Positions 1 through 9,525 of a stretch of DNA of 9,525 nucleotides are shown here, piece after piece. The stretch is from a virus. Taxonomy: Duplodnaviria > Heunggongvirae > Uroviricota > Caudoviricetes. Within the stretch, counting starts at the first letter, position 1. Each line of letters starts with the position of its first letter. The stretch lies in the IMG/VR virus record IMGVR_UViG_2563366807_000006, one strand, 5' to 3'. The translations under genes were made by a program, and so were the position numbers. A model generated the notes under the pieces. It worked only from the letters and a program-made list of their open reading frames with translations, was not told where the DNA came from and made no database searches.

Positions 1-621
1 GAGCCGGAGGCGTATTTTCGTATCGCACCGGAAGACTGGCTGCGGGCAGAGATGCAGGGGGAGATTGTGGCACTGGTCCACAGTCATCCCGGTGGGCTGC
101 CCTGGCTGAGCGAGGCTGACCGGCGGCTGCAGATAAAAAGCGCACTGCCCTGGTGGCTGGTCTGCCGGGGTGACATTCACAAATTCCGCTGTGTGCCACA
201 TCTGACGGGACGGCGCTTTGAGCACGGGGTGACGGACTGTTACACGCTGTTCCGGGATGCTTATCATCTGGCGGGGACTGAAATGCCGGATTTTCATCGC
301 GAGGATGACTGGTGGCGCAACGGTCAGAACCTTTACCTGGACAATATGGCGGTCACCGGCTTTTACCGGGTGCCCCTGTCCTCTGCACAGGCGGGCGATA
401 TTCTGCTGTGCTGCTTTGGTGCTTCGGTACCGAACCATGCCGCCATTTACTGCGGCAACGGTGAGCTGCTTCACCATCTGCCTGAACAACTGAGTAAACG
501 GGAGAGGTATTCCGAAAAATGGCAACGACGAACGCATTCTGTCTGGCGTCACCGCCACTGGCACGCATCTGCCTTCACGGGGATTTACAACGATTTGGCC
601 GCCGCCTCAGCCTGTATGTGA
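1..621 (+). CDS. K: Phage tail tip assembly protein K (5'-partial); JAB/MPN metalloprotease-like N-domain plus NlpC/P60-like C-domain
   Basis: Frame 1 is open from nt 1 (EPEAYFRIAPEDWLRAEMQGEIVALVHSHPGGLPWLSEAD...) to TGA at 619-621, so the true start is upstream of the window (the ORF track begins at an internal Met at 52). A perfect JAMM motif HxHx7Sx2D (HSHPGGLPWLSEAD) sits at nt 79-120. The C-terminal half has a Cys (GVTDCYTLF) and a His (PNHAAIY) as expected for an NlpC/P60 fold. The overall sequence is recognisably lambda gpK-like from memory. Confidence 0.88.
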   Translation, partial: EPEAYFRIAPEDWLRAEMQGEIVALVHSHPGGLPWLSEADRRLQIKSALPWWLVCRGDIHKFRCVPHLTGRRFEHGVTDCYTLFRDAYHLAGTEMPDFHREDDWWRNGQNLYLDNMAVTGFYRVPLSSAQAGDILLCCFGASVPNHAAIYCGNGELLHHLPEQLSKRERYSEKWQRRTHSVWRHRHWHASAFTGIYNDLAAASACM

Positions 622-1199
622 ACACGGCAGCGGAAGCCATCCGCGCGCTGTCGTTACAGGTGCCGGGCTTTCGCCGTCAGATGAACGAAGGCTGGTACCA
701 GATACGTATTGCCGGTTATGACACGGCACCGGAGGCGGTGTACGCCCGTCTTCACGAACAGCTGGGTGAGGGAACGGTCATCCATATTGTGCCGCGACTG
801 GCCGGGGCCGGAAAGGGTGGACTGCAGATTGTGCTGGGGGCGGCAGCCATCGTGGGCTCTTTCTTCACTGCCGGGGCATCAATGGCGTTATGGGGTTCAG
901 CCCTGGCAGCCGGTGGTTTTTCTGCCACCACGATGCTGTTTTCACTTGGAGCCAGCATGATTCTGGGCGGTGTGGCCCAGATGCTGGCCCCGAAGGCAAA
1001 AACACCGGATTACCGCGCAACGGATAACGGCAGACAGAACACGTACTTTTCCTCGCTGGATAACATGATTGCCCAGGGGAACCCGATGCCGGTGCCTTAC
1101 GGGGAAATGCTGGTTGGCTCCCGCCGTATATCCCAGGACATCAGCACCCGTGATGAAGGCGGGGGCGGAAAGGTCGTGGTTATCGGGCGGCAGGGGTAA
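519..1199 (+). CDS. I: Phage tail assembly protein I
   Basis: 226-aa ORF starting at ATG 519 and overlapping the 3' end of K by 103 nt in another frame, the same K/I overlap as in phage lambda. Sequence (ARICLHGDLQRFGRR..., Gly/Ala-rich hydrophobic middle, ...NTYFSSLDNM..VPYGEM..GSRRISQDISTRDEGGGGKVVVIGR) is recognisably lambda gpI-like. Stop TAA at 1197-1199. Confidence 0.9.
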   Translation: MATTNAFCLASPPLARICLHGDLQRFGRRLSLYVNTAAEAIRALSLQVPGFRRQMNEGWYQIRIAGYDTAPEAVYARLHEQLGEGTVIHIVPRLAGAGKGGLQIVLGAAAIVGSFFTAGASMALWGSALAAGGFSATTMLFSLGASMILGGVAQMLAPKAKTPDYRATDNGRQNTYFSSLDNMIAQGNPMPVPYGEMLVGSRRISQDISTRDEGGGGKVVVIGRQG

Positions 1200-1213
1200 A
1201 AAGAATAAAAAAA

Positions 1214-1245
1214 TCCCGCAGTGATCGCGGACAGGAACTGCGGGA
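1214..1245 (-). terminator. Candidate intrinsic terminator read on the minus strand
   Basis: Inverted repeat TCCCGCAGT (1214-1222) / ACTGCGGGA (1237-1245) with a 14-nt loop. On the + strand it is preceded by an A-run (AAAAAGAATAAAAAAA, 1197-1213), which is a T-run immediately following the hairpin when read on the minus strand. No T-tract follows it on the + strand. Confidence 0.3.
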
Positions 1246-1407
1246 GAGTTACGAAGATTAAGTGTAAGGAATTATTCTTATATCACGACAAAAAAATTAA
1301 CGCAGAGAAATTATACGCGCCACAGTCAGTTTGTGAAAATGTGAAGATATTCAGAATTTTTATGCCATTACCGGTTTTAACCAACAGGATTATCGGTGGG
1401 CATGAAA

Positions 1408-1445
1408 GAAAACCCCGGTATCTGCTGATACCGGGGTTTCTCTTT
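1408..1445. terminator. Strong GC-rich stem-loop with T-rich flanks on both sides (terminator-like, orientation ambiguous)
   Basis: AACCCCGGTAT (1411-1421) - CTGCTG loop - ATACCGGGGTT (1428-1438) is a perfect 11-bp stem. It is followed on the + strand by TCTCTTT and preceded by GAAAGAAAA, which is T-rich when read on the minus strand. Confidence 0.35.
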
Positions 1446-1542
1446 AGCATGGCAGAAATGTGTTTCATGCTTTTCGGGCGAAGGATATCCGACTTCTGTA
1501 CGGAATGGCAAGTGGCGGTTAATTTATTCAGGGGAAGGCTGT

Positions 1543-4500
1543 ATGGGAAAAGGTGGCGGTAAGGCACACACGCCTCGTGAGGCGAAGGATAATCTCAAAT
1601 CCACGCAGATGATGAGCGTGATTGATGCGATTGGTGAGGGACCGATAGAAGGTCCGGTGAAGGGACTGCAGAGTATCCTGGTGAACAAAACCCCGCTGAC
1701 GGACACGGACGGTAATCCCGTGATACACGGTGTGACGGCGGTCTGGCGCGCCGGGGAGCAGGAGCAGACACCACCGGAAGGCTTTGAGTCCTCCGGTGCT
1801 GAAACCGGACTGGGCGTGGAAGTGACGAAGGCAAAACCGGTGACGCGCACCATTACGTCCGCGAACATTGACCGCCTGCGGGTTACCTTCGGGGTGCAGT
1901 CACTGGTGGAGACCACCTCAAAGGGTGACCGTAACCCGGCATCCGTCCGCCTGCTGATTCAGTTACAGCGTAACGGTAACTGGGTGACAGAAAAGGACGT
2001 CACCATTAACGGCAAGACCACCTCACAGTTCCTGGCCTCGGTGATTCTGGATAATCTGCCTCCCCGGCCCTTTAACATCCGGATGGTCAGGGAGACGGCG
2101 GACAGCACCACGGACCAGCTGCAGAATAAGACGCTGTGGTCGTCATACACCGAAATCATCGATGTGAAACAGTGCTACCCGAACACGGCCATTGTGGGGC
2201 TGCAGGTGGATGCGGAGCAGTTCGGCGGCCAGCAGATGACGGTGAACTACCATATCCGCGGTCGCATCATCCAGGTGCCGTCAAACTATGACCCGGAAAA
2301 ACGCACGTATAGTGGTATCTGGGACGGCAGTCTGAAACCGGCATACAGCAACAACCCGGCCTGGTGCCTGTGGGACATGCTGACTCACCCGCGCTACGGC
2401 ATGGGAAAACGTCTGGGGGCGGCGGATGTGGACAAGTGGGCGCTGTATGCCATCGGGCAGTACTGCGACCAGACGGTCCCGGATGGTTTCGGGGGGACCG
2501 AGCCGCGGATGACCTTTAATGCGTACCTGGCACAACAGCGTAAGGCGTGGGACGTTCTCAGTGATTTCTGCTCTGCGATGCGCTGTATGCCGGTATGGAA
2601 CGGTCAGACGCTGACGTTCGTTCAGGACCGCCCGTCGGATGTGGTGTGGCCGTACACCAACAGCGATGTGGTGGTGGATGATAACGGCGTGGGATTCCGC
2701 TACAGCTTCAGTGCCCTGAAGGACCGGCACACGGCGGTGGAGGTGAATTACACCGACCCGCAGAACGGCTGGCAGACCTCCACGGAACTGGTGGAAGACC
2801 CGGAAGCCATACTGCGCTACGGACGCAACCTGCTGAAGATGGACGCGTTCGGCTGTACCAGCCGCGGTCAGGCCCACCGTGCCGGACTGTGGGTGATAAA
2901 GACCGAACTGCTGGAAACGCAGACGGTGGATTTCACGCTCGGGTCTCAGGGGCTGCGTCACACACCCGGTGACATCATTGAAATCTGTGATAATGACTAT
3001 GCCGGGACCCTGACCGGCGGACGTGTCCTGTCCATCGATGCCGCCAGCCGTACCCTGACGCTGGACCGGGAGGTGACACTGCCGGAGACCGGCACGGCCA
3101 CTGTTAATCTGATTAACGGCAGCGGTAAGCCGGCGAGTGTGGACATCACCGCACACCCCGCGCCGGACCGGATACAGGTCAGTACCCTGCCTGATGGTGT
3201 GGAGACATACGGTGTGTGGGGACTCTCCCTGCCGTCACTGCGTCGTCGCCTGTTCCGCTGTGTCTCCATCCGGGAAAACACGGACGGCACCTTTGCCATC
3301 ACGGCGGTGCAGCACGTACCGGAAAAAGAAGCCATCGTGGATAACGGTGCCCGCTTTGAGCCGCAGTCAGGTTCCCTGAACAGCGTCATCCCACCGGCAG
3401 TGCAGCACCTGACGGTGGAGGTGAGCGCAGCTGACGGCCAGTATCTGGCGCAGGCGAAATGGGACACGCCGCGGGTGGTGAAGGGTGTGCGCTTCAGTCT
3501 GCGCCTGACCAGTGGTAAGGGAACGGATGCCAGACTGGTGACCACCGCCATCACCGCAGACACGGAGCACCGTTTCAGCGGCCTGCCACTGGGGGAATAC
3601 ACCCTGACGGTGCGGGCGATAAACAGCTGCTACGGCATGGGAAAACGTCTGGGGGCGGCGGATGTGGACAAGTGGGCGCTGTATGCCATCGGGCAGTACT
3701 GCGACCAGACGGTCCCGGATGGTTTCGGGGGGACCGAGCCGCGGATGACCTTTAATGCGTACCTGGCACAACAGCGTAAGGCGTGGGACGTTCTCAGTGA
3801 TTTCTGCTCTGCGATGCGCTGTATGCCGGTATGGAACGGCCAGACGCTGACGTTCGTTCAGGACCGTCCGTCGGATGTGGTGTGGCCGTACACCAACAGC
3901 GATGTGGTGGTGGATGATAACGGCGTGGGTTTCCGCTACAGCTTCAGTGCCCTGAAGGACCGGCACACGGCAGTGGAGGTGAATTACACCGACCCGCAGA
4001 ACGGCTGGCAGACCTCCACGGAACTGGTGGAAGACCCGGAAGCCATACTGCGCTACGGACGCAACCTGCTGAAGATGGACGCGTTCGGCTGTACCAGCCG
4101 CGGTCAGGCCCACCGTGCCGGACTGTGGGTGATAAAGACCGAACTGCTGGAAACGCAGACGGTGGATTTCACGCTCGGGTCTCAGGGGCTGCGGCACACA
4201 CCCGGTGACATTATTGAAATCTGTGATAATGACTATGCCGGGACCCTGACCGGCGGACGTGTCCTGTCCATTGATGCTGCCACCCGCACCCTGACGCTGG
4301 ACCGTGAGGTTACCCTGCCGGAGACAGGTACATCGGCGGTGAACCTGATTAACGGCAGCGGTAAGCCGGTGAGTGTGGACATCACCGCACACCCCGCGCC
4401 GGACCGGATACAGGTCAGTACCCTGCCTGATGGTGTGGAGACATACGGGGTGTGGGGACTCTCCCTGCCGTCACTGCGCCGTCGCCTGTTCCGCTGTGTC

Positions 4501-4746
4501 TCCATCCGGGAAAACACGGACGGCACCTTTGCCATCACGGCGGTGCAGCACGTACCGGAAAAAGAAGCCATCGTGGATAACGGTGCCCGCTTTGAGCCGC
4601 AGTCAGGTTCCCTGAACAGCGTCATCCCACCGGCAGTGCAGCACCTGACGGTGGAGGTGAGCGCAGCTGACGGCCAGTATCTGGCGCAGGCGATGTGGTG
4701 GTGGATGATAACGGCGTGGGATTCCGCTACAGCTTCAGTGCCCTGA
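1543..4746 (+). CDS. J: Host specificity protein J (central tail fibre / tail tip), N-terminal portion with an internal tandem duplication; reading frame ends after a frameshifting junction at about 4690-4693
   Basis: ATG 1543 is preceded by GGGGAAGG (RBS). The N-terminus [39 protein letters not shown]... and downstream blocks ([70 protein letters not shown]) are recognisably lambda gpJ-like. The ORF runs 1067 aa; the last 18 codons ([17 protein letters not shown]) are out-of-frame read-through of the third repeat copy. Confidence 0.85.
2393..3628 (+). repeat. J internal repeat unit, copy 1 (complete, 1236 bp = 412 codons)
   Basis: Sequence from GCTACGGCATGGGAAAACG (2393) through ...GCGGGCGATAAACAGCT (3628) recurs starting at 3629 at about 99% identity. 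At protein level it spans [15 protein letters not shown]...[12 protein letters not shown]. Confidence 0.9.
3629..4692 (+). repeat. J internal repeat unit, copy 2 (partial, unit positions 1 to about 1064; in frame with copy 1)
   Basis: Offset of 1236 nt from copy 1. The junction retains an extra in-frame GCT (Cys) codon, giving ...[14 protein letters not shown].... The few nucleotide and amino-acid differences from copy 1 (e.g. AASRTLT vs AATRTLT; [21 protein letters not shown] vs [21 protein letters not shown]) show the copies are not identical. It ends at ...GQYLAQA. Confidence 0.88.
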
Positions 4747-5655
4747 AGGACCGGCACACGGCGGTGGAGGTGAATTACACCGACCCGCAGAACGGCTGGC
4801 AGACCTCCACGGAACTGGTGGAAGACCCGGAAGCCATACTGCGCTACGGACGCAACCTGCTGAAGATGGACGCGTTCGGCTGTACCAGCCGCGGTCAGGC
4901 CCACCGTGCCGGGCTGTGGGTGATAAAGACCGAACTGCTGGAAACGCAGACGGTGGATTTCACGCTCGGGTCACAGGGGCTGCGTCACACACCCGGTGAC
5001 ATCATTGAAATCTGTGATAACGACTATGCCGGGACCATGACCGGCGGACGTGTCCTGTCCATCGATGCCGCCAGCCGTACCCTGACGCTGGACCGGGAGG
5101 TGACACTGCCGGAGACCGGCACGGCCACTGTTAATCTGATTAACGGCAGCGGTAAGCCGGCGAGCGTGGCCATCACCGCACACCCCGCGCCTGACCGGAT
5201 ACAGGTCAGCACCCTGCCGGATGGTGTGGAGACATACGGTGTGTGGGGACTCTCCCTGCCGTCACTGCGTCGTCGCCTGTTCCGCTGTGTCTCCATCCGG
5301 GAAAACACGGACGGCACCTTTGCCATCACGGCGGTGCAGCACGTACCTGAAAAAGAAGCCATCGTGGATAACGGGGCCCGCTTTGAGCCGCAGTCAGGCA
5401 CCCTGAACAGCGTTATCCCACCGGCAGTGCAGCACCTGACGGTGGAGGTGAGCGCAGCTGACGGCCAGTATCTGGCGCAGGCTAAATGGGACACGCCGCG
5501 GGTGGTGAAGGGCGTGCGCTTCAGTCTGCGCCTGACCAGTGGTAAGGGAACGGATGCCAGACTGGTGACCACCGCCATCACCGCAGACACGGAGCACCGT
5601 TTCAGCGGCCTGCCACTGGGGGAATACACCCTGACGGTGCGGGCCATTAACAGCT
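4693..5655 (+). repeat. J internal repeat unit, copy 3 (partial, unit positions about 274-1236; -1 frame relative to the upstream J frame)
   Basis: Begins at ATGTGGTGGTGGATGATAACGGC, corresponding to copy 1 position about 2666, and continues to the unit end (..TVRAINS) before passing directly into the unique J 3' region ([12 protein letters not shown]...). The offset from copy 1 is 2027 nt, which is not a multiple of 3. It carries its own variants (AGTMTGG, ASVAIT, SGTLNSV). Confidence 0.88.
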
Positions 5656-7262
5656 ACGGCCAGCAGGGCGAACCTGCGACCACCACCTTCCGGATTGCCG
5701 CACCGGCAGCACCGTCGCGGATTGAGCTGACGCCGGGGTATTTTCAGATAACGGCGGTCCCGCGTCTTGCGGTGTATGACCCGACGGTACAGTTTGAATT
5801 CTGGTTCTCAGAAAAACGCATCACGAACACGGCACAGGTGGAAAAATCTGCCCGTTATCTGGGGACCGGCAGTCAGTGGACTGTCCAGGGGAGCCGGATT
5901 AAGCCGGGGACGGATTTCTGGTTTTACGTGCGAAGCGTCAACCTGGTGGGAAAATCTGCTTTTGTGGAAGCCAGCGGGCAGCCCAGCAATGATGGTGAAG
6001 GGTATCTGGAAATTTTCCGGGGGCTGATAGATGAGACGCTTCTGGGCCAGGCACTGAAAGAGCGCATTGATGCTTCAGCGCTGCGTACGGAGGTCACGCA
6101 ACTGGAAGAAGACATCCGTCAGCGGATGGACACGGATATCGCAGAAGTGACCCGGAAAATCGGGAAGGCGGAAAACAGCCTCACGCAGCTGGTTGCGAAA
6201 AAGAATGAGGACCAGACACTGGCCATCGCGCAGGTGAGCCAGAAAGTGGACCGGGTGAGCAGTGAAATCTCACAGACTGTCAGCCAGGGGCAGTCAGAAA
6301 ACGCCCGACAGATAGCACAGGTCCGCCAGTACGTGGATAAAAAAGGGAGTGAAATTACCTCGACCACGGATAAAAAGCTGGGTGACCAGGCCGTGACCAT
6401 ACAGCAAATCCAGCGGGTTCAGTCAGACACGCGCAATGAGCTGAATGCCATGTATATGCTGAAGGTGCAGAAAACAAAAAACGGTATTCCCTATGTGGCC
6501 GGGATTGGTGCGGGGATTGAGGATGTTGATGGTCAGACGCTGAGCAGTATTCTGCTGCAGGCGGACCGTATCGCGATGATTACCCCGGAGAATGGCAACA
6601 CCACGCCGCTGTTTGTGGCGCAGGGGAATCAGCTGTTCATGAACGACGTGTTCCTGAAGCGACTGTTTGCGGTGAGCATCACGTCATCCGGCAATCCTCC
6701 TACGTTTTCCCTGACGCCGGATGGCAGGCTGACAGCCCGCAATGCGGATATCAGTGGAGCCATCACGGCGAATACCGGCACGCTCAATAATGTCACCATT
6801 AACGAGAACTGTGTCATCAGAGGGAAACTGTCTGCAAACCAGATTGAAGGCGATCTCGTTAAAACAGTGGGTAAGGCTTTCCCCCGTGACTCCCGTGCAC
6901 CGGAGCGTTGGCCATCAGGAACCATTACCGTCAGGGTTTATGACGATCAGCCGTTTAACCGGCAGATTGTTATTCCGGCGGTGGCTTTCAGCGGTGCCAG
7001 ACATGAGCGGGAGAACAGCGATACTTATTCGTCATGCCGCCTGATAGTACGGAAAAACGGTGCTGAAATTTATAACCGTACCGCGCTGGATAATACGCTG
7101 ATTTACAGTGGTGTTATTGATATGCCTGCTGGTCGCGGCCACATGACGCTGGAGTTTTCTGTATCAGCATGGTGGGTAAATGGCTGGTATCCCACAGCAA
7201 GTATCAGCGATTTGCTGGTTGTTGTGATGAAGAAAGCCACTGCAGGCATCACGATTAGCTGA
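4695..7262 (+). CDS. J: Host specificity protein J, C-terminal portion (repeat copy 3, Fn3-like region, coiled-coil region, C-terminal receptor-binding region), 'cassette A'; probably the downstream half of a frameshifted J rather than an independent gene
   Basis: 855-aa ORF opening at GTG 4695, 2 nt after the copy 2/copy 3 junction, with no strong RBS (only a weak AGG at 4688-4690). Contains [21 protein letters not shown]...[10 protein letters not shown]...[16 protein letters not shown] (Fn3-like), a long heptad-like coiled-coil stretch (about 6040-6450), and a C-terminal block ...[24 protein letters not shown]...[29 protein letters not shown]... ending ..[10 protein letters not shown]; TGA at 7260-7262. 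Confidence 0.8.
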
Positions 7263-7683
7263 ATTTTATAACCCCAATACGGGCGCCAGAAATGGCGCCT
7301 TTTTTATTGCAGAAAAGCGAGAGGTAATTATGCGTAAAGTTTGTGCAGCCATTTTGTCCGCAGCCATCTGTCTGTCCGTATCCGGTGCGCCTGCATGGGC
7401 GTCTGAACATCAGCCCACACTGAGCGCGGGGTATCTTCATGCCCGTACGAACGCTCCCGGCAGCGATAATCTGAACGGGATTAACGTGAAATACCGTTAT
7501 GAGTTTACGGACGCGCTGGGGCTGATTACGTCCTTCAGTTATGCCAATGCTGAGGATGAGCAAAAAACGCACTACAGCGATACCCGCTGGCATGAAGATT
7601 CCGTGCGTAACCGCTGGTTCAGCGTGATGGCGGGGCCGTCTGTACGCGTGAATGAATGGTTCAGCGCGTATGCGATGGTGGGT
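5503..7683 (+). repeat. Segmental duplication unit A (J 3' portion - terminator - lom 5' portion), period about 2181 bp
   Basis: 5503-5750 is near-identical to 7684-7930, and about 6800-7683 is about 90-95% identical to 8760-9525 (the 7281-7307 terminator and lom start recur at 9243-9269 and 9292). The central part is divergent with a net 219-nt length difference. Confidence 0.85.
7281..7307 (+). terminator. Rho-independent terminator downstream of J cassette A
   Basis: GGCGCCA (7282-7288) - GAAA - TGGCGCC (7293-7299) followed by TTTTTTATT. Confidence 0.8.
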
Positions 7684-7689
7684 TGGTGA
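7330..7689 (+). pseudogene. lom: Lom/Ail-family outer membrane protein, 3'-truncated at codon 119 by the duplication junction (lom copy A)
   Basis: RBS GAGAGG 6 nt upstream of ATG 7330. Signal-peptide-like N-terminus MRKVCAAILSAAICLSVSGAPAWA, followed by ...LNGINVKYRYEFTDALG...RNRWFSVMAGP..SAYAM, which matches Lom/Ail beta-barrel proteins as I recall them. Full-length Lom is about 200 aa; here TGA is created at 7687-7689 exactly where J-derived sequence (GTGAAGGGCGTGCGCTTCAGT) begins. Confidence 0.75.
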
Positions 7690-9224
7690 AGGGCGTGCGC
7701 TTCAGTCTGCGCCTGACCAGTGGTAAGGGAACGGATGCCAGACTGGTGACCACCGCCATCACCGCAGACACGGAGCACCGTTTCAGCGGCCTGCCGCTCG
7801 GGGAATACACCCTGACGGTGCGGGCGATAAACAGCTATGGCCAGCAGGGTGAACCTGCCACCACCACCTTCCGGATTGCCGCACCGGCAGCACCGTCGCG
7901 GATTGAGCTGACGCCGGGCTATTTTCAGATAACCGCAACGCCACATCTTGCCGTTTATGACCCGACGGTACAGTTTGAGTTCTGGTTCTCGGAAAAGCGG
8001 ATTGCGGATATCAGGCAGGTTGAAACCGCAGCCCGCTATCTTGGCTCGGCGCTGTACTGGATAGCTGCCAGTATCAATATCAAACCGGGCCATGATTATT
8101 ATTTTTATATCCGCAGTGTGAATACTGTTGGCAAATCGGCATTCGTGGAGGCTGTCGGTCGGGCGAGCGATGATGCGGAAGGTTACCTGGATTTTTTCAA
8201 AGGAGAAATCGGGAAAACACATCTGGCCCAGGAGCTGTGGACGCAGATTGATAACGGTCAGCTTGCGCCGGACCTGGCTGAAATCAGGACGTCCATTACG
8301 AATGTCAGCAATGAAATCACGCAGACCGTCAATAAAAAACTGGAAAATCAGAGTGCGGCAATCCAGCAGATACAGAAAGTTCAGGTTGATACAAATAATA
8401 ACCTGAACAGCATGTGGGCCGTGAAACTGCAGCAGATGCAGGACGGACGCCTTTATATTGCGGGTATCGGTGCCGGTATTGAGAATACGCCAGCAGGAAT
8501 GCAGAGTCAGGTGCTGCTGGCGGCAGACAGGATTGCGATGATTAATCCTGCGAATGGCAACACAAAGCCGATGTTTGTTGGTCAGGGCGATCAGATATTT
8601 ATGAATGAAGTGTTCCTGAAATATCTGACGGCTCCCACCATTACCAGCGGCGGTAATCCTCCGGCATTTTCCCTGACACCGGACGGGCGGCTGACGGCGA
8701 AAAATGCCGATATCAGCGGTAACGTGAATGCGAACTCCGGGACGCTCAACAACGTCACGATTAACGAGAACTGTCGGGTTCTGGGAAAATTGTCCGCGAA
8801 CCAGATTGAAGGCGATCTCGTTAAAACAGTGGGCAAAGCTTTCCCCCGGGACTCCCGTGCACCGGAGCGGTGGCCATCAGGAACCATTACCGTCAGGGTT
8901 TATGACGATCAGCCGTTTGACCGGCAGATTGTTATTCCGGCGGTGGCATTCAGCGGCGCTAAACATGAGAAAGAGCATACTGATATTTACTCCTCATGCC
9001 GTCTGATAGTGCGGAAAAACGGTGCTGAAATTTATAACCGTACCGCGCTGGATAATACGCTGATTTACAGTGGTGTTATTGATATGCCTGCCGGTCACGG
9101 TCACATGACACTGGAGTTTTCGGTGTCAGCATGGCTGGTAAATAACTGGTATCCCACAGCAAGTATCAGCGATTTGCTGGTTGTGGTGATGAAGAAAGCC
9201 ACTGCAGGCATCACGATTAGCTGA
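7656..9224 (+). CDS. J C-terminal paralogue fragment, 'cassette B' (Fn3-like region + shorter coiled-coil + C-terminal receptor-binding region); lacks the J N-terminal domains; silent cassette or remnant
   Basis: 522-aa ORF. The first 11 codons (from ATG 7656) are an alternate-frame read of the lom-A 3' end with no RBS. From about 7684 onward it encodes [62 protein letters not shown]..., near-identical to cassette A and repeat copies 1 and 3. The middle ([92 protein letters not shown]) differs from cassette A and is closer to my recollection of phage lambda J. Ends ..[13 protein letters not shown] at 9222-9224. Confidence 0.7.
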
Positions 9225-9242
9225 ATTTTATAACCCAGATAC

Positions 9243-9269
9243 GGGCGCCAGAAATGGCGCCTTTTTTAT
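9243..9269 (+). terminator. Rho-independent terminator downstream of J cassette B
   Basis: GGCGCCA (9244-9250) - GAAA - TGGCGCC (9255-9261) followed by TTTTTTATT; identical to the 7281-7307 element. Confidence 0.8.
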
Positions 9270-9291
9270 TGCAGAAAAGCGAGAGGTAATT

Positions 9292-9525
9292 ATGCGTAAA
9301 TTATGTGCTGTTATTTTGTCCGCAGTAGTCTGGCAGGTCGCCGCTGCTACGCCAGCGAGTGCAGCAGAACATCAGTCCACGCTGAGCGCGGGGTATCTCC
9401 ATGCCTCGACGAACGTTCCCGGTAGTGATGATCTGAACGGGATTAACGTGAAATACCGTTATGAGTTTACGGACGCGCTGGGGCTGATTACGTCCTTCAG
9501 TTATGCCAATGCTGAGGATGAGCAA
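9292..9525 (+). CDS. lom: Lom/Ail-family outer membrane protein (lom copy B), 3'-partial at window end
   Basis: GAGAGG RBS then ATG 9292. MRKLCAVILSAVVWQVAAATPASAAEHQSTLSAGYLHASTNVPGSDDLNGINVKYRYEFTDALGLITSFSYANAEDEQ..., open to the window end. The signal peptide differs from lom-A while the mature region is near-identical. Confidence 0.85.
   Translation, partial: MRKLCAVILSAVVWQVAAATPASAAEHQSTLSAGYLHASTNVPGSDDLNGINVKYRYEFTDALGLITSFSYANAEDEQ

Follow-up and report, generated by a model that had tools for sequence, protein, structure and literature searches.

What occupies the space between the tail genes I and J of this lambdoid prophage of E. coli, and is it more than a spacer? The window, by which we mean the whole 9,525-nt stretch of DNA that was analyzed (IMG/VR record IMGVR_UViG_2563366807_000006), has an upstream open reading frame (ORF; 519..1199) that matches Pfam Lambda_tail_I (gene I) and an ORF from 1543 with the GpJ domains FNIII-A_GpJ, Ig_J, and Phage-tail_3 (Pfam; gene J). 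Because the I ORF ends at 1199 and the J ORF starts at 1543, the I-J gap comprises 343 bp of noncoding DNA (1200-1542). An earlier reading of the letters without database searches (hereafter, the sequence-only reading) had described this spacer as much longer than that of lambda, AT-rich against the tail genes, and possibly foreign. Each impression holds. In lambda, 60 bp separate the end of I (15444) from the start of J (15505). The GC content of the window's gap is 0.417 (about 42%) versus 0.602 in I and 0.608 in J (60 to 61%), with 0.361 in 1200-1365 and 0.469 in 1366-1542. The origin of the spacer is foreign and mosaic. The term moron reportedly denotes, in the usage attributed to Juhala et al. 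in 2000, extra DNA between two conserved phage genes that relatives lack and that has its own promoter and terminator and a deviant base composition. The spacer shows each of these traits: it measures 343 rather than 60 bp, its GC content is 0.36 to 0.47 rather than 0.60, and it contains a promoter and a terminator. We consider it highly probable that the I-J spacer is a moron-type insertion of two modules: an antisense small RNA (sRNA) gene of the PasB/EcOnc22 family and a J leader with a terminator-like hairpin.

As called mechanically, the I ORF (ATG at 519, 226 aa) shares about 100 nt with the end of a K-like ORF (52..621). In closed genomes, I is annotated with 193 aa from the K stop, so the true I start probably lies near 618.

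The features of the left part of the gap are as follows, with the coordinates of the window.
~1200-1365, minus strand: left module, the sRNA gene, with promoter, unstructured body, and Rho-independent terminator.
1305..1365, minus strand: conserved promoter block, defined by alignments, with an A/T-rich, UP-element-like stretch upstream of the -35 hexamer; also the junction of the left and right modules.
1345..1340, minus strand: second copy of TTCACA, 8 nt upstream of the -35 hexamer.
1332..1337, minus strand: -35 hexamer TTCACA (promoter scan), invariant in 39 of the 40 distinct alleles, the exception being the Sakai allele.
1310..1315, minus strand: -10 hexamer TATAAT (promoter scan), behind a 16-nt spacer.
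1207..1303, minus strand: primary transcript predicted for the window allele, 'A', with a length of about 97 nt, its start placed from the position of the -10 hexamer.
1271..1279, minus strand: (ARN)3 run AAGAAUAAU, a candidate Hfq distal-face contact judged from its sequence and from the ARN triplets, at least three in number, of each of three alleles compared.
1253..1271, minus strand: single-stranded CU-rich core UUCCUUACACUUAAUCUUC, a candidate seed judged from allele alignments and unpaired in the consensus fold.
1207..1244, minus strand: Rho-independent terminator (hairpin 1), with the stem CCCGCAG/CUGCGGG followed by A and U7.

The promoter scan found a sigma-70 promoter on the minus strand, TTCACA-16-TATAAT at 1337..1310, which matches 11 of 12 consensus positions. 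When the gap was shuffled 5000 times with dinucleotides preserved, 0.84% of the shuffles scored at least 11. The sequence-only reading had proposed weak hexamers on the plus strand, among them TTGTGA around 1330. That hexamer is the -35 of the strong minus-strand promoter read on the wrong strand, and the near-consensus promoter itself had been overlooked. On the plus strand of the gap, no promoter was found by the scanner or by eye. In other alleles, the -10 hexamer reads TATAAT, AATAAT, or GATAAT, and the invariant sequence of the promoter block is TGTGAAAATGTGAAGATATTCAGAA. The roughly 30 bp upstream of the -35 hexamer (1338-1365, minus strand) are near-invariant across alleles whose bodies are about 60% identical. 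They contain the direct repeat TTCACA-TT-TTCACA and an A/T tract. This stretch could be an UP element, a regulator site, or a segment homogenized by recombination; inspection of 1338-1365 by eye recognized no transcription-factor consensus.

Hairpin 1 pairs 1215-1221 with 1238-1244 and is followed on the minus strand by A and U7 at 1214..1207 (U7 being 1213-1207). It folds at -15.7 kcal/mol (z = -4.0), and none of 200 shuffles folded as well. No T-run follows the stem on the plus strand; hairpin 1 is therefore not a plus-strand intrinsic terminator, and the earlier view that it looks like a terminator only when read on the minus strand is upheld. The predicted 3' end of the sRNA (~1207) lies 8 nt from the I stop codon (1197-1199). 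According to the fold of the window allele and the RNAalifold consensus, the terminator is the only predicted stable structure of the sRNA. Its seven pairs show no change in any allele that has both arms (the outer arm is missing from one allele), and covariation is therefore uninformative here. Most alleles have two alternative left arms, an outer CCCGCAG and an inner CCGC(G/A), for the same 3' arm CUGCGGG, and a few (e.g., L007) have the short inner hairpin alone. These twin left arms (1215-1244) may reflect a duplication or two alternative conformations.

The best-conserved segment of the body is AAUCUU, whose adjacent bases vary between alleles. In each of the three alleles compared, a CU-rich stretch (UCCUU ... 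AAUCUU) comes after the ARN triplets, despite differing sequence. The 5' end can be placed in two ways. The -10 hexamer predicts a start at ~1303, which is 14 to 15 nt upstream of ~1288, the equivalent of the mapped PasB 5' end transferred by alignment. With the latter, the mature RNA would measure about 82 nt. Either the RNA undergoes processing or one of these estimates is inexact, and the published end, which is coverage-based, may be only approximate.

A small moron or an sRNA had been among the suggestions of the sequence-only reading, and the same slot in enteropathogenic strain E2348/69 indeed holds a Northern-validated sRNA, PasB. PasB (83 nt; NC_011601 1466343..1466261, minus strand) belongs to prophage PP6 of EPEC E2348/69 (Pearl Mizrahi et al. 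2021, PMC8550237). A Northern blot confirmed the RNA, which is stabilized by Hfq, takes part in 37 RIL-seq interactions, and is more abundant under non-virulence-inducing growth (PMC8550237). We took its 5' and 3' ends from table S6 of PMC8550237 and placed them on the window by alignment. In E2348/69, PasB lies between I (which ends at 1466255) and J (which starts at 1466496), that is, in the same I-J slot, in the same antisense orientation, and with its 3' end by the I stop. The promoter block (~60 bp) and the terminator are near-identical, including the U7 tail. Both RNAs have a single-stranded body in which an ARN run precedes UCCUU..AUCUUC. The mapped 3' end of PasB falls at exactly the homologous terminator, as expected from the earlier proposal of an antisense transcript that ends at hairpin 1, and the PasB Northern probe matches window 1212-1231 at 20 of its 23 bases. 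However, the window sRNA is only 72% identical to PasB overall and 61% identical in the body upstream of the terminator. The bases in and around the proposed seed are not the same in the window allele, and the right-hand side of the gap differs as well (R1 and a 343-bp gap in the window; R2 and a 240-bp gap in E2348/69). Mosaic intermediate alleles link the two.

Judged by position, orientation, homology, and its own promoter and terminator, the left module of the window belongs to the PasB/EcOnc22 family as a diverged allele. By analogy with PasB and EcOnc22, we infer that it is expressed as an Hfq-dependent RNA of the 83- to 85-nt type. The analogy does not extend to function: because the body is only 61% identical, target and function data for PasB are not transferable. 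The PasB seed has been placed just upstream of the terminator, and PasB variants are said to differ by 'only a few nucleotides' (Zhu, Shabalina and Storz 2026, bioRxiv 10.64898/2026.05.13.724894). With variants so few nucleotides apart, the window allele appears to fall outside that catalogue, whose PasB-2 (a single change at position 27) is the PPompW-type allele.

A third body allele occupies the I-J gaps of the O157 Sakai prophages Sp15, Sp14, and Sp11, which align with the window. In just these three prophages, Tree et al. (2014, PMC4104026, Table S2) list EcOnc22, EcOnc23, and EcOnc24, in antisense orientation to the tail genes. EcOnc22 gives a Northern band of ~85 nt and is destabilized in a delta-hfq strain (Tree et al. 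2014, PMC4104026). The published EcOnc coordinates refer to an older genome version and were shifted by about +128 to +146 to match NC_002695.2, a shift calibrated on AgvB. For AgvB1, the old Hfq peak is at 1941783-1941835 and the Rfam match in NC_002695.2 is at 1941920-1941981. EcOnc06 and its STnc100 match at 3.49 Mb give a compatible shift (about +100 to +230). Once shifted, EcOnc22 (~2902842-2902920) coincides with the body of the predicted I-J sRNA, whose U-run is at 2902920-2902926. By this calibration, EcOnc22-24 would be alleles of the same gene as PasB and the window sRNA. Like the window sRNA, these Hfq-bound RNAs of ~85 nt would lie in the I-J gap antisense to the tail genes, and their terminator and core align with those of the window. 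They differ in a body that is 67% identical to the window's and in a more diverged promoter (-10 AATAAT, with the proximal -35 lost). Neither Pas paper mentions EcOnc22 (PMC8550237; Zhu et al. 2026), and a 2021 review gives its targets as unknown.

The promoter 23-mer has exact matches in at least 120 IMG/VR contigs, and the loci located with this 23-mer contain 40 distinct left modules. Across these, there is essentially no variation in the promoter hexamers or in the terminator's 3' arm and U-tail. In the sRNA body, alternative 5' parts, cores, and preterminator segments are combined in mosaic fashion. Left alleles also occur with different right modules: in the IMG/VR set we counted 37 A+R1, about 15 A+R2, 21 B+R1, and about 15 B+R2 combinations, plus mosaics. 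Left allele and right module thus assort independently, which makes the conserved promoter block the recombination joint. What had been taken for a single 343-bp insert therefore consists of two modules joined at that block. The sequence-only reading would have been contradicted by a spacer of the same length in most lambdoid I-J junctions, free of transcript ends. We find otherwise: lambda is without the spacer, and homologous alleles have mapped transcripts.

Could the spacer be a nonfunctional recombination scar, AT-rich junk, or a protein-coding moron? The region is indeed a mosaic joint, and it does contain mechanical ORFs (1221..1562 on the plus strand, 113 aa; 1283..1567 on the minus strand, 94 aa). 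Yet promoter and terminator are far better conserved than the body, and homologous alleles are expressed. The ORFs have GTG starts and run across module boundaries with allelic indels that are not multiples of three. A PHROG search with three gap ORFs gave no match below E = 0.09, and on this result we rejected a protein-coding reading. No Shine-Dalgarno-like sequence was seen upstream of the in-frame ATG at 1449. We regard a scar or a coding moron as very improbable and retain the antisense sRNA gene, whose homology, position, orientation, promoter and terminator motifs, and allelic mosaicism are direct observations.

To the right of the promoter block, the gap contains the following features.
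1366..1542, plus strand: right module R1, the J 5' leader, one of two alternatives; nearly invariant and found only in this context.
1410..1439, both strands: hairpin 2, a perfect 13-bp stem (from folding) with the loop TGCT and T-rich runs on both sides.
1482..1511, minus strand: weak promoter-like TTGCCA-18-TATCCT, a 9/12 match.
1531..1545, plus strand: Shine-Dalgarno-like GGGGAAGG and the ATG of J, from sequence, ORF, and Pfam.

R1 (~180 bp, with hairpin 2) is found in the window and in PPompW prophages. The alternative, R2 (~75 bp), is unrelated to R1 and is found in E2348/69, Stx1 and Stx2c phages, PhiR5_1, and Sakai. With so little variation in R1, its individual parts cannot be judged by conservation. 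Hairpin 2 pairs 1410-1422 with 1427-1439, and 10 of the 13 pairs form a G+C-rich core; it is the perfect GC-rich stem-loop with T-rich tails on both sides of the earlier description. It folds at -28.6 kcal/mol when read on the plus strand and at -26.4 kcal/mol on the minus strand (z about -7). By folding energy, which the sequence-only reading had proposed as a check, both hairpins of the gap are real. The tails of hairpin 2 are interrupted (plus strand UUUCUCUUU, minus strand UUUUCUUUC), and the terminator scanner did not call it, probably as its T-run criterion was unmet. From its sequence, hairpin 2 looks like a bidirectional intrinsic terminator. In one contig (IMGVR_UViG_2671180417_000014), R1 lacks 47 bp that include all of hairpin 2 and are bounded by an AGAAA repeat or microhomology, so the hairpin can be lost, at least in that contig.

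Similar hairpins precede J elsewhere, at positions that correspond to that of hairpin 2. In R2, a plus-strand hairpin is followed by GTTGTTTTT (-18 to -23 kcal/mol), and one of its pairs has changed from T-A to C-G via a T.G intermediate, a compensatory change. In the lambda gap, a plus-strand hairpin (ACCGCC-TGCG-GGCGGT) is followed by TTTTG (-15.2 kcal/mol). The presence of a hairpin with a T-run before J in lambda, R2, and R1 marks it as an old feature of the I-J junction, and the sRNA cassette is located between the I stop codon and this pre-J hairpin. The lambda hairpin resembles hairpin 2 in its G+C-rich stem with a plus-strand T-run before J. It differs in its unrelated sequence and in lying in a 60-bp gap without an sRNA cassette. 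Unlike the lambda and R2 hairpins, hairpin 2 has a T-run on the minus strand too.

These hairpins suggest another reading, in which the spacer is a plus-strand checkpoint whose hairpins act as terminators or attenuators that meter late transcription into J, the minus-strand signals being incidental. The recurrent hairpin and T-run before J and the compensatory change in the R2 hairpin speak for it. Hairpin 1 has no plus-strand T-run, however, and the minus-strand promoter matches 11 of 12 positions and is conserved. Transcripts of the predicted size and strand have been published for two alleles. In lambda, Q-modified late transcription is expected to read through intrinsic terminators, which also counts against a checkpoint. 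The lack of a plus-strand T-run at hairpin 1, the expected Q read-through, and the conserved minus-strand signals leave the idea applicable to hairpin 2 only, and as an account of the spacer we consider it improbable. The role of hairpin 2, like the targets of the window allele, is something we infer. In a gap organized around an antisense sRNA gene, hairpin 2 of R1 would replace the plus-strand pre-J hairpin of lambda and R2 phages and would probably stop rightward transcription that is not antiterminated. In the other direction, it might shield the sRNA promoter from antisense transcription out of J. A second minus-strand RNA of ~70 nt (~1475..1405), running from the promoter-like site at 1511..1482 to hairpin 2, is speculative; the minus-strand fold of 1405-1475 has -31.6 kcal/mol.

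How might the window sRNA act? Transcription from the sigma-70 promoter (-35 at 1337..1332, -10 at 1315..1310) would start at ~1303 on the minus strand, antisense to the tail operon, and would end at the U7 terminator (1244..1207). By analogy with the PasB and EcOnc22 alleles, the sRNA could be made from a resident prophage without late transcription. Hfq would stabilize it through the 3' U-tail and the ARN run, and the single-stranded CU-rich core could then pair in trans with host and prophage mRNAs. This core is partly anti-Shine-Dalgarno, with UUCCUU complementary to AAGGAA. ChiX-type (class II) Hfq sRNAs have an ARN-rich stretch, a CU-rich anti-Shine-Dalgarno-like seed, and a terminator with a long U tail. 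We take the architecture of the window sRNA to resemble theirs, and we know of no sequence homology between the two. The window sRNA most likely acts by Hfq-dependent base-pairing in trans. Promoter and terminator are common to the alleles and the bodies differ, so the target sets probably differ too.

Alternatively, the RNA, a perfect complement of the I-J intercistronic part of the late tail mRNA, could act mainly in cis, either by pairing with that mRNA during lytic growth (through RNase III cleavage or stability, tuning J versus I) or by interference between convergent transcripts, with a secondary trans role that is compatible with it. In every case the gene is antisense and lies exactly between I and J, and its slot is conserved while its body drifts, as expected of an RNA that pairs with its own complement. 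Against this, PasB has its 37 Hfq-mediated interactions with other RNAs (PMC8550237), and the ARN runs of the three alleles compared, together with the conserved AAUCUU core, point to trans pairing. The RNA overlaps neither the J ribosome-binding site nor I coding sequence, as it starts ~240 nt from the J ATG and ends short of the I stop, and lambda does without it. Predicted duplexes of the sRNA with the J start, the I start, and R1 reach -34 to -42 kcal/mol, no better than the window background (mean -41.4, SD 6.0) with RNA.duplexfold, a method that is crude for long sequences; pairing at the J start is thus at background. We consider a mainly cis-acting RNA rather unlikely and keep to trans pairing as the preferred reading.

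A bolder version of the trans reading, which we put forward tentatively and with some doubt, is that the I-J slot is an allele-swapping sRNA cassette with conserved ends and a hypervariable pairing region (at least 40 versions, with ~60% identity between major alleles). Through recombination within those ends, lambdoid prophages would exchange target specificities like tail-fibre modules, the window allele would have targets that differ from those of PasB, and R1 might further encode a second antisense RNA of ~70 nt. If this is true, the window allele, which about a quarter of the complete E. coli genomes carry and which is common among extraintestinal isolates, regulates its own target set; the allele is so far unannotated and apparently uncatalogued.

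Other prophage sRNAs provide parallels for the PasB family. AgvB, AsxR, HnrS, and PasA/C/D are likewise short, Hfq-associated RNAs of prophages; each has a promoter and an intrinsic terminator of its own and lies between late genes, and they form families with conserved 3' parts and variable pairing regions. They differ in occupying other slots (downstream of PR'/Q, near lysis genes) and in their unrelated sequences. A search of the whole window at Rfam gathering thresholds gave no matches, and the best subthreshold matches in the gap were terminator-like chance matches. The AgvB (RF02702), AsxR (RF02703), STnc100, Esr41, and IsrK families, among others, were rejected on this basis. PasB is absent from the families listed as Rfam entries. 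Two further candidates were set aside. The extraintestinal origin of the closest genomes brought up svsR of prophage NC-SV (PMC12803456), an sRNA that maps to another locus, the 3' end of cI. HnrS corresponds to EcOnc10-12 (PMC13502914), measures 66 nt, and has its own site in the late region, some 5 kb away from AgvB.

Of the alleles in the IMG/VR sample of at least 120 contigs, that of the window occurs most often. Of 5426 complete E. coli genomes, 1662 contain the full 343-bp spacer, and the identity is at least 99% in 633 records. Copies with 100% identity include those of 'FDA strain Seattle 1946' (NZ_CP149500, 2964861-2965203) and EBJ003. The window sRNA alone reaches at least 99% identity in 613 records and at least 90% in about 1240 of the 5426. 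RefSeq carries no annotation at the spacer or the sRNA in these E. coli records, which leaves roughly 30% of complete E. coli genomes with a gap in their annotation. One genome per species was also searched for the promoter 23-mer; in that set, it was found only in E. albertii and two tiny contigs, and this search gave no sign of the cassette outside Escherichia. One of the contigs, assigned to Asaia platycodi (NZ_BAKW01000035.1, 546 bp), has the exact 23-mer. The other, assigned to Streptomyces flavalbus (NZ_JBHTEB010000006.1, 3408 bp), has the 23-mer and the whole I-J spacer with small indels. Both are most likely E. coli prophage contamination of unrelated assemblies.

The sRNA family has already been described; the window allele and the allelic architecture are new details of it, not a new kind of system. 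Prophage sRNAs tie horizontally acquired DNA to host regulation, and PasB and EcOnc22 are abundant Hfq clients. EPEC PasB and, by the coordinate calibration, EHEC EcOnc22-24 would be alleles of one gene in a fixed slot of the tail operon. The window adds a third allele that is equally common, unannotated, and dominant in many non-EPEC/EHEC strains, including clinical extraintestinal isolates. With its variable pairing region between a constant promoter and terminator, the locus is a natural allelic series for work on targets.

Downstream of the gap, the J region of the window (2393-9525) is rearranged relative to closed genomes. Against E. coli EBJ003, window 1-3628 corresponds to reference 1501-5128, 3629-4691 to 3893-4955, and 4690-7686 to 4163-7160 (99.9%). 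Two further, more diverged pieces of the J C terminus follow at 7680-7996 (94%) and 8514-9525 (86%). The J frame breaks at ~4700, where the ORFs 1543..4746 and 4695..7262 are in different frames, and the best-matching closed genomes (12 listed) hold the same content in 5.66 kb. J alleles of several prophages have probably been joined into a chimera during assembly, a reading that we favor over a genuine array of J cassettes.
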